A stretch of 64,000 bases of DNA, taken from Marsupella aquatica. Taxonomy: Eukaryota > Plantae > Marchantiophyta. The notes under the pieces are model-generated. The model saw nothing but the letters and a program-made list of their open reading frames with translations. It was not told where the DNA came from and made no database searches. This document shows positions 1-16,625 of this stretch, piece after piece. Positions within the stretch are counted from its first letter, which is position 1. Every line of letters starts with the position of its first letter. Both the position numbers and the translations under genes were made by a program. The stretch lies in contig OZ316895.1 in the NCBI GenBank assembly GCA_973895155.1, forward strand, positions 13,317,186 to 13,381,185, read 5' to 3'.

Positions 1-3000
1 GGTAGTTGCTTTTCTAGCTGCTGCCTTTTTCTTCTTAACCTCCTTCTTTTGAAGCTCCTCTTGCCGGGCCGCCTCCTGCCGGGCCGCCTCCTTCTTTTGA
101 AGCTCCTCTTTCCGGGCCGCCTCCTGCCGGGCCTCCTCTAGTCGGGCCGCCTCCTGCCTGGCCTCCTCCTGCCGGGCCGCCTCCTGCCGAGCCGCCTCCT
201 GCCGGGCCTCCTCCTACCGGGCCTCCTCCTGCCGGGCCGCCTCCTCTCTGGCCTCCTCCTGCCGGGCCGCCTCCTCTTTGGCCTCCTCCTGCCGGGCAGC
301 CTCCTCTCGGTCCACCTCATGTCGAGGCTCCTGTGTGGCCTCTTCATCAGAGTCCTCAGCGTCCTCGGAACCCTCCATCTCCTCGTCCTCTTCATCAGCG
401 TTCTCAGCGTCCTTCATCTCCTCTCCGTCACTCTCTTCATCTCCTCTATTGTCGAAATCTCCGACGTGGTTCTGCGTATCGGTCATCCACTCTGGATCTT
501 GGTCATTGACATCCCCATCCGCGTCACCTTCCGCGTCATCTTCCCCCTGACCATCCGCATCACCATTGCTCCCTGCATCCTCAACATTGAAGCCGCAGTT
601 GACTTGATCTGAATAAAATCAGATCATTTGATAAGAATGACTCACGCGCATATTCGCGTGAAAAGAAATGTTATGAATGTCCACGCGCATGTTCGCGTGA
701 CGCAATAAAAAGTAAGAGGTTTCAAAAGTAACTTACCTTGGATTGGCCCACTAGGGTACTCCGTTGGTCGAATGTACAATCGATTGGAATCTTCAGAGAG
801 TGCATACTCTTGCAATAATTGATTGCAAATATTATCAGGGAAATGTTGTTCGTGGAGGACATCCAAAACATCAGCCCTGAGAGCAGTTACGGATGGATGG
901 TACTTCATTAATTTATCTATACATTTTTCTATACTAGCCCATACTGGGTCAATCAATGACAACGTTGTATCAATTGTCGCCGTGGTGTGTTGCAAGAAAC
1001 AAGACAACTCCCTATGCGTTGCCACAGGGCAATAATATTTTACATTGGATCCAGCATCCTGTAAAAAAAGCCAAAATTAGTTCACAATATTAATTGAGAA
1101 TAAAATAATCTAAATAATCTTAAAATCGAAACCCCAAAATATAAATCTCAAAACTTACCATTAAGCACTGGATCAAGTTCGTTCCCTCACCGAAGCATAT
1201 AGCCCATTCCCCACATTGGACGAATTGACTAACAATACTTTCAAAGAATGGAAGTATCTTTTCTGGGGAAGGTGTCGTGAACTCGCCGCTCTCTTCAAAA
1301 TTGGCTATCTTCTCAATCTGATATTTGGAGACCAATTGGAACTCGAGGGCTTGTGGATCGCCCATTGTGCTAAAGGCCAAGCTGTGAAAAGCGTAGGTTA
1401 CAATAAGCTTCTTCTCCTTTGGCCGCTTCTGAATATAATGGCTATCGACATCAACGTAGTGTGTGTACTTCCCTAATTCCCGTTTGATTAAGTAAGACTC
1501 AACGGGAGAGGCTACAATAATAACCACATGTTGTGGTTTTGCCCATATCTCGCTAGTAGCACGAAATAACCCCTCATAGAATGAGCAATTTGGCGGACGC
1601 AAATCTCCCATTGATGAGGGATCAAAATAAATCAAGCTCGCAAGGTTCTTGTCTTCACGTATGATACAGTCTGCAAACCCAGCATTTTGTATATCCTGTA
1701 GGGATTGCAATTTCAGCCTCTCACCGACCGGCCGCACTAGTTGGTTTCCTTGACTATCAACTGATTTCTGTATTCCTTCAACCAACCTGTAGAATATAGG
1801 GTCGATCTCCTTCAACAAATTATCATTACTAATATTTACATTTAAGCACTTCTTCAGATAACCACTCAACGCATCTCTCAACTGCTTCAGCACCATCTTG
1901 TCGAGCTTAAAGCGATCAATCATTCCTTTGACCCGCAATTTCCGCGCTGAATCTGTCAGACTTTTTAGCTCCGTCCGGGTGGATGTTTCCCCATTGAGTT
2001 TACTCAATAATAAAATCTCAAACTCAACTTTTGTCTTCTTCTTTATACAGAATTGCTCCTGACTCATGTTGGTCGTTGACAACACTGGAGCCTCAGAGGA
2101 CTTCCTCGCCTTCCCAAATTTCACTTTGATGCTTCGGTTTTTGAGTATAGACAGTCTTCCGCTCAACATATATTTCGCTGCCTTTCAAAGAACCGAGTCT
2201 GAGCACCCTTGACAAGAACGGAACATCTTCTTTAGAAGATGATAAGCACACGGATTATCCGCAATTTTGACGGCGTCCCTCTATAAAATTCCGTTGTAAA
2301 TTGCAAGCTCTCCTGTCCTTGATAGTTCGTAGACCTCCATCCACTTCTTGAATGTTTCGTCCTCCATTGTAAAGAGAAACGGAGCTAATTCTCCAAATTT
2401 CATCATTTCGTTCTTCCCCATTTGAGCCCATGAGCAAACAAAACTCGTAGCTCTCATAAATACCTGAAAAACAATGGAAACATGACAATTCTAAGCTTGG
2501 CGCAACCGGTCGCGTGACAAAAGTTTATACGATAATGTGATCGAAGAGGGTTATTTATATACCTTCCAATTTGGATGACGATAATGTGATCCAGGCCGCC
2601 CAAATGAGTTCCAGATATTACGACACTATCATACAATGGTGAGAAACTGTCCTTCTTCCATTGATGTTTGATGATAGTGGTTTAGAGCTTTCGATAATCC
2701 CATCAAATGAACATTATTGTCGTTGTTGAGCGTTGCCCAAAACATTACAGCTTCTATAGTACCGCAAGCGTCTCGTACAACTTGGCTGATTTTGTCGTCC
2801 TCTCTCAGCAATTTGTACGCCATTATTGTGTGCTAGCCTCCGAGTATCCAGAAATGACTGGTCATAATGTCCTCCTCCTTTGGCGATGAATCGTAGGGCG
2901 TCCCATTGTAGTCGGGATCTTTGTCGGCCTCCGACTGAACCCACTTCACAGGGACTAAAAAGCAGCATCGCTTCTCAAACTTTATAGTCGAATGAGAGAG

Positions 3001-3801
3001 GAGTGAATTCTTTAGCCTATCTGTGTAATCTTGATTCCACTCTTGGCACTTGATGTGGTCCGGTGCAAGATGAAAACGTGATGTCTCAACAAAAAATGAC
3101 TTGCTGTTAAATATATTCACAACACTATATTCTTTGAGGAAAGAATCGAACAGAGCCCCGACATTCGCTGAGGTAATTACTTTTGGAAGATTCTCCGCCG
3201 AGTATACTTCAACCTTGCTAACTGGCGGGGCCTTTCCCAAGCGAAATCCCTGGCTGAAAGGAACTCTCCGGAACTCAAGTACGTCAATAATGTATTGACA
3301 AATCAAATCTCCTGTTGATGCCTCTGGATCGGAAGGATATCCCACACTAGTAACCTTTTCCAAGGCGTGCCTTGCACCTAGAAGATAATCGATTCTGGGC
3401 TGATTGAAGGTTACATATTGCGTTCGATCCAAACAAATGCTTATTTTGTCTTCCTGCTGGTCGTCGCTGACTAGCAGAACCAATCCCTCTGTACACTCTT
3501 TAACTTTCATGTTCTTCTCAAAGAAATATCCGAGAATTTTTTATCTCTCCAAAACTGTAGCTTTATCATTTCTTGCCACCACAAGACGGACAGCCCCATT
3601 GCGAACGACTATTCCAAAATCGGATATCTCAGTCGATTCAAAGAGATGGATACTCTTTGTCTCCGTTGTTCTCTCTCTGATTGACTTTCCTCGATATGCA
3701 AGTATGGATGTCTCCGGAGGAGTCATTTTTGTCTTGGTTTTCTTTCGAGAAGCAGCTTTAGACGAGTCTCTTTTCCGCTTTGAGGTTCCGGTAGGATCCA
3801 T
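1..3801 (-). pseudogene. Multi-exon ParB/Srx-like + amino-DNA-methyltransferase-like + acidic/charged-repeat protein, disrupted; continues past left edge
   Basis: ORFs 3541-3801, 2833-3510 and 2629-2823 are one frame across single stops (HFWILGG*HTIMAY). GT-AG introns at about 2562-2465, 1158-1059 and 736-609; the last two join ORFs 1120-2169, 642-1025 and 214-486 in frame. Motifs LIYFDPSS and FFESIVSQFVQCGEWAICFGEGT. Probable frameshift near 2260-2300. Confidence 0.6.
47..305 (-). repeat. Coding minisatellite of 15/18-nt units (EEAARQ) giving an E/R/K-rich helical tail
   Basis: Repeated gccgggccgcctcctc(c)t on the plus strand; minus strand reads EEAARQEEAKEEAARQ. One unit has TAG where the others have CAG (214-216). 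Confidence 0.85.
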
Positions 3802-3876
3802 TCTGAAACAGACAAATATTGAAAGTTAAACGTTTATTATAAAATACTAACACGCGCATGGTCACGTCGTGCCGAA

Positions 3877-15176: not shown

Positions 15177-15597
15177 TGTTGAGCATAGACGACGATCGCA
15201 ACGGCAAGCCCATGAACCATCCAACGCACAATAGTCGACACAAGAGATACGTGGTTCACCTCCTTGAGGCTACGTCCACGGGAACACACAAGAGAGCTTT
15301 ACTGAACTCTAAGCCCGTCGGCTATACCGAGTCTCCACAGTGTACGCTCTCCCTATCTCTCAAGTGGCTCCATAACAATGAGCCTTGGTTCTACCTCTCC
15401 AAGCACACATGCCTCTTATGACATAGTGTGCAACTTAGTTGTACCTAACCACATAGTTGTACCTAATCACGTAGTTGTACCTAACCACATAGTTGTACCT
15501 AATCACGTAGTTGTACCTAACCACGTAGTTGTACCAACCCACGTTGTTGTACCAACCACGTCATACCTAACCTAGACGTAAGAGTAAATACCCAACA
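15177..15597. mobile_element. Solo LTR (421 bp) inserted in the last transposase exon
   Basis: TGTTG...CAACA termini with a perfect 5-bp TSD TGTTT (15172-15176 and 15598-15602). Removal restores the frame LDVYPVHMGLVV. Contains about 7 copies of an 18-bp repeat (acgtagttgtacctaacc) at 15435-15570. Confidence 0.9.
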
Positions 15598-16029
15598 TGT
15601 TTATCCCGTCCATATGGGGTTAGTTGTTACAGATGTGGTAGAAGGACCAGTGAATGAACAAAACCTTCTTACTCATGTATGTGGCGTTGAGTGGTTTAGA
15701 TCATTTATGGCAAAGAAGCAACGTGGTCAATCAGACTGGCAGCCAAGAGAGCGGTGGGCAGATTCTTGGGATAAGAAATGGGAACGTGATCCATCTCCAA
15801 TATACAAGGAAGCTGAGACAATAGATGTTTCCTCTGCCTTGTGGTGTTTCAAAGCACGCAAAGGACCAGTGACAGGGCTGGTAGGAATTCCAAAGAATGT
15901 TGCTGTCAAGGCAAGAGACTATCTCTTGACATGCATAGCAAGTGACAAATCCTAGACAGTAATGAAGCATGTAGTTTAGCATACAGTTTAAAAGGCAACT
16001 CAGAATAGTAGTAGCCAGAGAACTCAAGT

Positions 16030-16625
16030 TTAGACAAGTCTTATCGTCTAAGTTAGTTAGTTGGTTAGTTTATTTAAGATATAATATTAGTTAGTGGGGC
16101 CTTAGTTTGGTGATATTAAGGCATGATATTATTGACATTCAAATGAATGTCCAGTAGACATTGTAATATACAACAATCCTATTAATAAATAATAATTATA
16201 GTTACACCCTCAAGTGAACTCAACTTTCAATGATTTCTGATTTTATATGGTTCCATGCCTGATTGAGTCAAAGCAATAGAAACTAACTAATTAAAGGGTG
16301 ATACTATAATTGTAGGTCACGCACCCTGGTGGGTGTCAATCTTTTTTGTATTCAACCCTATAGTAATTAAATAGACAAGTTAGTTAGTTGGTTAGTTTAT
16401 TTAAGATATAATATTAGTTAGTGGGCCCTTAGTTTGGTGATATTAAGGCATGATATTATTGACATTCAAATGAATGTCCAGTAGACATTGTAATATACAA
16501 CAATCCTATTAATTGTTGTAAAGAAACTAATTAATTAAAGGGTGGTACTTACTATGATTGTAGGTCACGCACCCTGGTGCGTGTCAATCTTTTTTGTATT
16601 CAACCCTATAATAATTAAATAGACA
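16030..16625. repeat. Direct duplication downstream of the transposase, with a palindrome variant
   Basis: About 16050-16185 recurs at 16377-16512, and about 16279-16378 at 16522-16627. CACGCA-ccctgg-TGCGTG at 16566-16583, with a degenerate copy at about 16318. Confidence 0.85.

Follow-up and report, generated by a model that had tools for sequence, protein, structure and literature searches.

Two algal accounts of 2025 propose that the ParB-like accessory proteins of giant transposons bind and modify the DNA of their own elements (PMC12477816; 10.1101/2025.02.11.637652). One describes Sola1-1_Ec32 of Ectocarpus, an element of 21.5 kb with termini AACCG-CGGTT and with Sola1-1_PPa as its best match, in which an accessory gene of about 1,100 amino acids, carrying ParB-like and methyltransferase domains, lies on the strand opposite to the transposase (PMC12477816). 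The other describes Plavaka elements of Bostrychia, in which the ParB-like gene PAG3 adjoins tandem inverted-repeat arrays, and for which self-binding and self-modification are proposed (10.1101/2025.02.11.637652). In the accessible text of these accounts there is no binding test, and the Sola1 account names no site (PMC12477816; 10.1101/2025.02.11.637652). Here we describe a stretch of 64,000 nucleotides from the liverwort Marsupella aquatica (contig OZ316895.1 of assembly GCA_973895155.1, positions 13,317,186 to 13,381,185 of the forward strand; "the window"), in which positions 1-16843 belong to a many-copy, giant DNA transposon, Sola1-like and more than 16.8 kb long, with its left end outside the window. 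This element contains a palindrome repeated throughout its non-coding DNA, and an accessory gene whose product has a predicted ParB/Srx fold. We consider it probable, if only modestly so, that the palindromes act as parS-like sites for this accessory protein and serve anti-silencing.

The consensus of the site is CACGCG(AC/CA)-NN-GTCGCGTG, i.e., an imperfect, polar 8-2-8 palindrome. The sequence CACGCG-N6-CGCGTG, with up to two mismatches, was matched 22 times, against 0.39 ± 0.60 expected. The exact core ACGCG-N6-CGCGT occurred 12 times with a gap of 6 bp, never with a gap of another length between 0 and 15 bp, and in none of 200 dinucleotide shuffles of positions 1-16843. Allowing up to two mismatches in this 10-base core gave 31 matches in the window, 27 of them within 643-16583; the other four scored less than 11 bits with a weight matrix built from 12 contexts. 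The same matrix found 28 sites in the window, all within 643-16583 and all scoring higher on the plus than on the minus strand, with none past 16.6 kb and none in exons. The 28 include a new copy at 16318, together with the 27 starts listed in the initial annotation (643, 682, 2499, 3851, 5050, 5666, 11748, 12009, 16566, eleven at 5775-6684 and seven at 9403-10154), every one of which was recovered. That annotation also described conserved arms around a variable centre of 6 bp. The arms are indeed conserved, but only the central 2 bp vary: because position 11 is constrained to G (25 of 27 copies) and position 12 to T (26 of 27), the palindrome is 8-2-8 and polar.

As had been claimed from the outset, all copies lie outside the coding exons (0 of 28 within them). 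The region 609-5700 is 90% coding, yet all six of its copies fall in five separate non-coding gaps (P ~1e-5 for five of five). Two of these (643-660 and 682-699, plus strand) are in intron 609-736 of the ParB-like gene, and a degenerate copy (2499-2516, plus) is in intron 2464-2562, beside which the homologues P0067, P0068 and P0073 lose their match at the exon end. Another (3851-3868, plus) lies 49 nt upstream of the ATG of the ParB-like gene, before a splice-acceptor-like AG, with positions 3851-3890 duplicated in one contig of run X2, and another (5050-5067, plus) is in a gap between F-box-like open reading frames (ORFs), 41 nt upstream of an ATG. Within 609-5700, five copies in the left arm lie about 33-48 nt ahead of an acceptor-like AG, and three of these stand just before an ATG; the ParB-like gene and the F-box-like ORFs may serve a single leader as alternative 3' exons.

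Outside these gaps, array 1 (5666-6701, plus) holds 12 copies in or beside tandem units of 80, 107 and 189 bp, and array 2 (9403-10171, plus) holds seven in a 255-bp tandem unit. The copies at 11748 and 12009 (11748-12026, plus) belong to a 65-bp duplication upstream of the transposase. Near the right end (16318-16583, plus) are two variants, i.e., CACGCA-N6-TGCGTG at 16566 and the imperfect copy at 16318; contigs with depths of 880 and 957 are identical to the stretch 16494-16579. Only two of the 28 sites lie in the last 600 bp of the element, the remainder being internal, and they concentrate around the ParB-like gene and the leaders. An early suggestion that the pattern does not reflect simple duplication is only partly right, because 18 of the 27 copies are within or at the edge of the two tandem arrays, and the pairs 11748/12009, 16318/16566 and 5666/6684 are themselves duplicated. 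In its favour, the flanks of the 12 chosen contexts were on average only 30% identical, with one related pair at 68%, and about 11 contexts are independent.

Over 1-16.8 kb, summed contig depth (runs X1 and X2), which is not copy number, was about 5,000-16,000 in the majority of bins, against 40-65 for the unique contigs beyond, i.e., roughly 100-250 times that of the contigs to the right, and higher at array 1 and at an inserted long terminal repeat (LTR). Depth fell at 16,860, and the loose ends found behind 16843-16847 had flanks that differed from one another; there have therefore been many insertions, and the right end is fixed. It reads ...TAAATTGGGGTT (16832-16843, plus; ...GGGGTT, or AACCCC on the other strand), which matches the Sola1-type terminal motif (AACC...GGTT) at the one end available. 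The transposase gene (12153-15955, plus) has an intron at about 14041-14240 and the motifs HDKMD, QLDN and GHTHEDVD, and its product matched PF25273 (DUF7869; E 2.5e-37) and had 22 homologues, with no relative in viral contigs; it matched no Mutator-like element (MULE) family, the hallmark of VANDAL elements. The terminus and the architecture together make this likely to be a Sola1 DNA transposon. We presume that DUF7869 is the link to Sola; our searches found no literature on "DUF7869". The present copy is broken, with stops in the transposase gene (at 12402 and 14933) and in the accessory gene. At 16654-16843, position 16654 is joined in a contig of run X4 to sequence that includes the right end in reverse complement, and contigs of X1 and X4 jump from 16702 to the end of the element; these junctions are possibly short non-autonomous derivatives, which would show where the left terminus lies. 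Two other identities were rejected: a Helitron 3' hairpin, since no consistent CTRR follows the copies (by eye) and the enzyme is a DDE-type transposase, and an endogenous giant virus, in view of the introns in the genes, the defined end and the absence of viral relatives from the searches.

The accessory gene (1-3801, minus; exons 3801-2563, 2463-1159, 1058-737 and 608-<1) has at least 1158 codons and runs off the window. Its three GT-AG introns (609-736, 1059-1158 and 2464-2562) were verified. There are seven in-frame stops in the present copy, one of which is missing from all covering contigs in four runs. The alignment of this gene (A2) used 20 of 31 homologue matches, leaving out short ones and clearly unrelated ones (e.g., P0077 and P0089). 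A model of the first 412 residues had a predicted local distance difference test (pLDDT) score of 80.6, and contains a predicted ParB/Srx-fold domain (2677-3111, minus; residues ~231-375) with the motif WI.GGQHT. The top ten Foldseek matches were all ParB, Noc, PadC or sulfiredoxin (probability 0.98-1.00, E 0.008-0.04), and by VIA the domain aligned with PadC over 93 residues with a root mean square deviation (rmsd) of 2.7 and a Z score of 7.9, which, being below 8, is middling. CTPase ParBs carry an arginine patch; the conserved motif here is GGQHT. No relatives of the domain were found in viral contigs or in prokaryotic genomes, and no ParA ATPase partner was found among the 21 ORFs scanned, the left part of the element lying outside the window. 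A weaker prediction is a PH-like domain (3250-3696, minus; residues 36-184; VIA Z 4.6-5.7 to PH, PTB and FERM domains). Exon 2 also contains a possible methyltransferase-like region (1159-2184, minus), which was not confirmed: a two-sequence model was unusable (pLDDT 32), the one homologue (P0098) was 49% identical, and the likeness to N6/N4 methylases is our presumption from motifs and analogy. At 1-330, a 15-bp repeat of the gene encodes a coiled coil of EEAARQ type following an acidic stretch.

As a comparison set we used 80 metagenome loci with related transposases (numbered L001-L080). The build of the palindrome is kept among these relatives (even spacing, 16-22 bp) but its sequence is not, the window's own motif with up to one mismatch being found in none of the 80. 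At least three copies of one palindrome were present in 12 of the 80 loci, against none of 80 shuffles. Fourteen of the 27 best loci had at least 700 bp upstream, and nine of these 14 held 3-12 copies of an evenly spaced palindrome of 16-22 bp, as did L018 within just 435 bp; coding controls gave a maximum of two. The word in L015 is TACGAACG-N2-CGTTCGTA (12 copies, whose flanks and centres vary) and that in L011 is TTTGGGTCG-N2-CGACCCAAA (eight copies). The elements at L018, L022 and L025 terminate alike in ...GTT, each with different flanks. In the eight loci with usable matches, the nearest palindrome was 75-632 bp from the transposase ATG. Three copies alone are weak evidence, because one three-copy palindrome was also present in a stretch of the window that served as a control (49-64 kb). 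The loci L028-L080 (53 of the 80) are mostly decayed, and three of them passed the palindrome test; in a relaxed search of ten stretches (nine decayed loci, L029 included) there were 1-3 copies, against 1-3 in shuffles.

In a transposase tree of 39 rows (38 of the 80 loci plus the window, whose branch is long and whose placement is unsure), the palindrome words were alike inside three supported clades. This shows inheritance, but not the identity of the binder, since kin share labels. Imperfect terminal inverted repeats were seen in L022 (556 bp, 69%) and L029 (~640 bp, 84%), and there was no 4-bp target-site duplication at the flanks of L022 (GGTG / ATAT). Three loosely similar palindromes each, barely beating shuffles, lie upstream of decayed transposases at L028:2625-3310, L045:2860-4630 and L061:6007-6850. 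At L078:12312-13680, downstream of the transposase, are five copies of TTGCGA-N11-TCGCAA, which may belong to a neighboring CACTA element; their half-site resembles the TnpA motif as given in the accessible text of 10.64898/2026.08.24.746577.

The ratio of observed to expected CpG (CpG o/e), with the motifs masked, was 0.79-0.93 in six of the seven segments of 620-12100, array 1 being the exception (0.41); it dropped to 0.31-0.35 within the transposase gene and to 0.11 close to the right end. The corresponding values for codon positions 3-1 were 0.49-0.82 in the motif-bearing part and 0.23-0.32 in the transposase gene. The step, at 12.1 kb, falls less than about 400 bp from the last canonical site, and no contig bridging 12,100 was found among the matches listed. 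Both CG and CHG are depleted in the window.

The initial annotation read the motif as the binding site of a dimeric protein. This is still the best reading, now with a candidate binder of predicted ParB/Srx fold and with support across the family; the accessory protein would recognize the 8-2-8 site by binding as a dimer. We favor a parS-like site because the gene that encodes the predicted fold has sites in its introns and leader, because the geometry compares with that of sopC, because the sites cluster at that gene and in its surroundings and not at the end, and because ParB-like genes co-occur with inverted-repeat arrays in a different superfamily, as described for Plavaka (10.1101/2025.02.11.637652). 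Under the mechanism we propose, local tandem duplication would add sites, which would be retained wherever coding and splicing stay intact. Bound protein, possibly spreading as ParB does, would keep about 12 kb low in 5-methylcytosine (5mC); alternatively, the C-terminal half of the protein might write another mark. CpG o/e, as a proxy for methylation, is in keeping with such a loss in the window but not in the relatives. Site and protein would co-diverge, giving each subfamily its own word, and a broken copy such as the present one would need intact copies in trans. A bolder version, which we regard as doubtful, credits the Sola1-like transposons of plants with a eukaryotic ParB/parS system, in which a ParB-fold protein would load at subfamily words present in almost all introns and gaps, spread from there along the element, and either protect about 12 kb from host 5mC or mark it.

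Several observations weigh against this proposal. The ParB/Srx fold also occurs in sulfiredoxin, SerK and SbnI, and family profile searches gave no helix-turn-helix (HTH) match in the region after the ParB domain. For the putative methyltransferase of exon 2 there was no relevant match in family, PDB sequence, Atlas, NCBIfam, PHROGs or PADLOC searches. The accessory gene was seen in no palindrome-bearing relative, though most contigs are short, and L059 and L046 carry its remnants without a clear palindrome family. Eighteen of the 19 arm mismatches in the present copy are CpG transitions, so the sites themselves have at times been methylated. In five of ten relatives (L009, L011, L015, L022 and L025) CpG o/e was lower upstream than in the gene (0.41-0.61 versus 0.72-0.97); in the other five it was similar upstream or above. 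Finally, the CpG step at 12.1 kb may equally mean that a module was captured from a source with less methylation, a plausible alternative because the accessible text of the Plavaka account reports that such accessory genes move between transposon families (10.1101/2025.02.11.637652).

The remaining difficulty leads to a different binder. L022, which is apparently complete at 7.1 kb, has terminal-repeat-like arms (556 bp, 69%), six or seven palindromes and a transposase, with no ParB-like ORF between the arms. Unless it uses a helper in trans, this layout favors the transposase itself, whose N-terminal repeats might bind the palindromes and activate or demethylate its own promoter, for which Spm TnpA and the AtMu1 transposase offer a precedent (10.64898/2026.08.24.746577, accessible text). 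The position of the relatives' arrays directly upstream of the transposase ATG (at the distances given above for eight loci) and the way the words follow the transposase tree would fit, as would weak matches of two transposase N termini (P0003, E 0.014; L010, E 0.01; both below the cut-off) to PF03017 (TNP1/EN/SPM). We would nevertheless give this a minor share of the probability. The TnpA and AtMu1 sites described there are terminal, whereas 26 of the 28 here are internal; these extend across the introns of the accessory gene, and the transposase intron has none. It is also the transposase gene that is depleted in CpG, and, as noted, tracking by the tree cannot name the binder.

Three explanations that dispense with an element-encoded binder seem much less probable. 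Amplification of a host transcription factor site would account for CG-rich half-sites in leaders and introns, and for three copies 41-49 nt upstream of ATGs, but there are no copies among the host genes at 16.6-64 kb and sister subfamilies have unrelated words; the arrangement is also, we presume, unlike CAMTA or NAC sites, and we think this origin improbable. It is just as hard to believe that tandem duplication and gene conversion produced the copies as a neutral side effect. That idea draws on the two arrays, on the uniform orientation and on the further local duplication in run X2; against it, about 11 contexts share the word without the flanks, the array units are unrelated, copies occupy small introns, and at least three further clades show the pattern with words of their own. 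We have least faith in an RNA hairpin affecting splicing or a recombination site for gene cassettes. The five left-arm copies that precede an acceptor-like AG by about 33-48 nt, and a polarity like that of recombinase sites, might suggest one or the other, although the small gaps offer little room for other positions. The palindromes of L010 and L022 are perfect and have no loop, the orientation of the sites is constant across two oppositely transcribed arms, and there was no Rfam match in 1-17200; no recombinase family was found among the 21 ORFs, and motif centers were uncut in the joints listed (15 of 99).

Compared by description, this element is closest to Sola1-1_Ec32, which is likewise giant and has an opposite-strand ParB-like accessory gene and an AACC-type terminus (AACCC here) (PMC12477816). 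A methyltransferase domain was called there and is not confirmed here, and the PH-like N terminus, F-box-like ORFs and plant host are seen only here; palindromes are not mentioned in the main text of that account (PMC12477816). Plavaka elements share the combination of a ParB-like accessory gene with inverted-repeat arrays. However, as far as their published description is accessible, they have an EnSpm-type transposase, their ParB is fused to a 2-oxoglutarate (2OG) oxygenase, their methylase is encoded by a gene of its own, and their arrays adjoin PAG3, whereas here single copies also occur in introns and gaps over 16 kb (10.1101/2025.02.11.637652). Sites of the ParB family are described as 16-bp inverted repeats, tandem or dispersed, and the center of F sopC is a non-palindromic 2 bp (PMC3177203, accessible text). 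The SopB/sopC pair of the F plasmid (PMC3177203) is like the present one in its inverted repeat, its non-palindromic 2-bp center, its longer tandem units and its ParB-type fold (predicted here), but the present element is eukaryotic with introns, no ParA partner was seen among its scanned ORFs, and no segregation role would be expected.

In the way it may work, the element is also like the VANDAL/VANC system of Arabidopsis, where, in the accessible text, subfamily-specific motifs occupy introns, intergenic and terminal non-coding DNA and are multiplied by tandem repeats (PMC5735166). VANDALs, however, are Mutator-like, their motifs are non-palindromic and of 8-9 bp, and binding and demethylation by VANC have been shown experimentally (PMC5735166). 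By analogy with Spm TnpA and AtMu1, where methylation is lowered by a protein that the element itself encodes and that binds family-specific motifs in clusters, the accessory protein is a candidate for such a role; in those systems, as described in the accessible text, the sites are terminal rather than internal, and the superfamilies differ (10.64898/2026.08.24.746577). The present element would be VANC-like in working without being a VANDAL. Nor are its palindromes CACTA subterminal repeats, since the terminus reads AACCCC and the motifs are not concentrated at that end.

We found no report of such a design in a land plant, the relevant literature matches being the algal Sola1 and Plavaka accounts only, with most subscription journals and Repbase outside the coverage. 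New at this locus are the plant case itself, the dispersal of sites into introns, the subfamily words across clades and the CpG boundary. The locus offers a defined site beside a candidate protein, with further subfamily words for swap experiments, and its sharp CpG boundary predicts where methylation should drop. If our reading is correct, a bacterial partition fold would have given rise anew to the kind of sequence-specific anti-silencing for which VANC and TnpA of flowering plants are known. In the bolder version, the mechanism would be prokaryotic in origin and independent of both, and might provide a programmable clamp against silencing.

Accessory-gene remnants in the relatives were all weak (i-E ~0.001 in L059, L062 and L046). 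In L059 and L062, which are probably one locus, the remnant lies about 8 kb upstream of the transposase on the opposite strand (i-E 0.0012). By eye, L046:9600-11500 and L059:1-1500 are decayed and mutually similar, the former being downstream on the same strand and the latter upstream on the opposite strand; a pairwise comparison of the methyltransferase-like region with the L046 remnant was not significant.

The element has other features. Three F-box-like ORFs (3877-4434, 4442-5023 and 5074-5658, minus) matched the Pfam F-box with E values of 0.004-0.016, below the curated cut-off. A GAGCGA repeat with the telo-box-like ACCCTAAT (7787-7960) lies in what may be a promoter zone between two divergent genes, and an ORF of 182 codons (10434-10982, minus) had no family match. 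Within the transposase gene is a solo-LTR-like insertion (15177-15597; TG...CA, 5-bp duplication TGTTT), seen from a joint 15170-15597 and from a depth of 120,000-420,000; the inserted retroelement is very abundant, and loose ends before 15176 resemble a primer-binding site. The transposase intron contains, at 14150-14201, telomere-like AAACCCTA words and TAAATTGGGG, the latter being the word of the right terminus.

Beyond the element are host genes at 21463-24260, 37982-38305, 43452-43733 and 48387-63054, i.e., those for a ZZ/RING zinc-finger protein and MoaE, a fragment of a carbohydrate-binding-module gene, and a long SNF2 ATPase gene; the SNF2, MoaE and carbohydrate-binding genes contain introns, and these, with the depletion of CG and CHG, by themselves suggest a eukaryotic and probably plant host. 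There is also an inverted repeat resembling a miniature inverted-repeat transposable element (MITE) at 28468-28696, with arms of 53 and 36 bp, and a tandem array at 29418-29911 with about 22 copies of a 19-bp unit.

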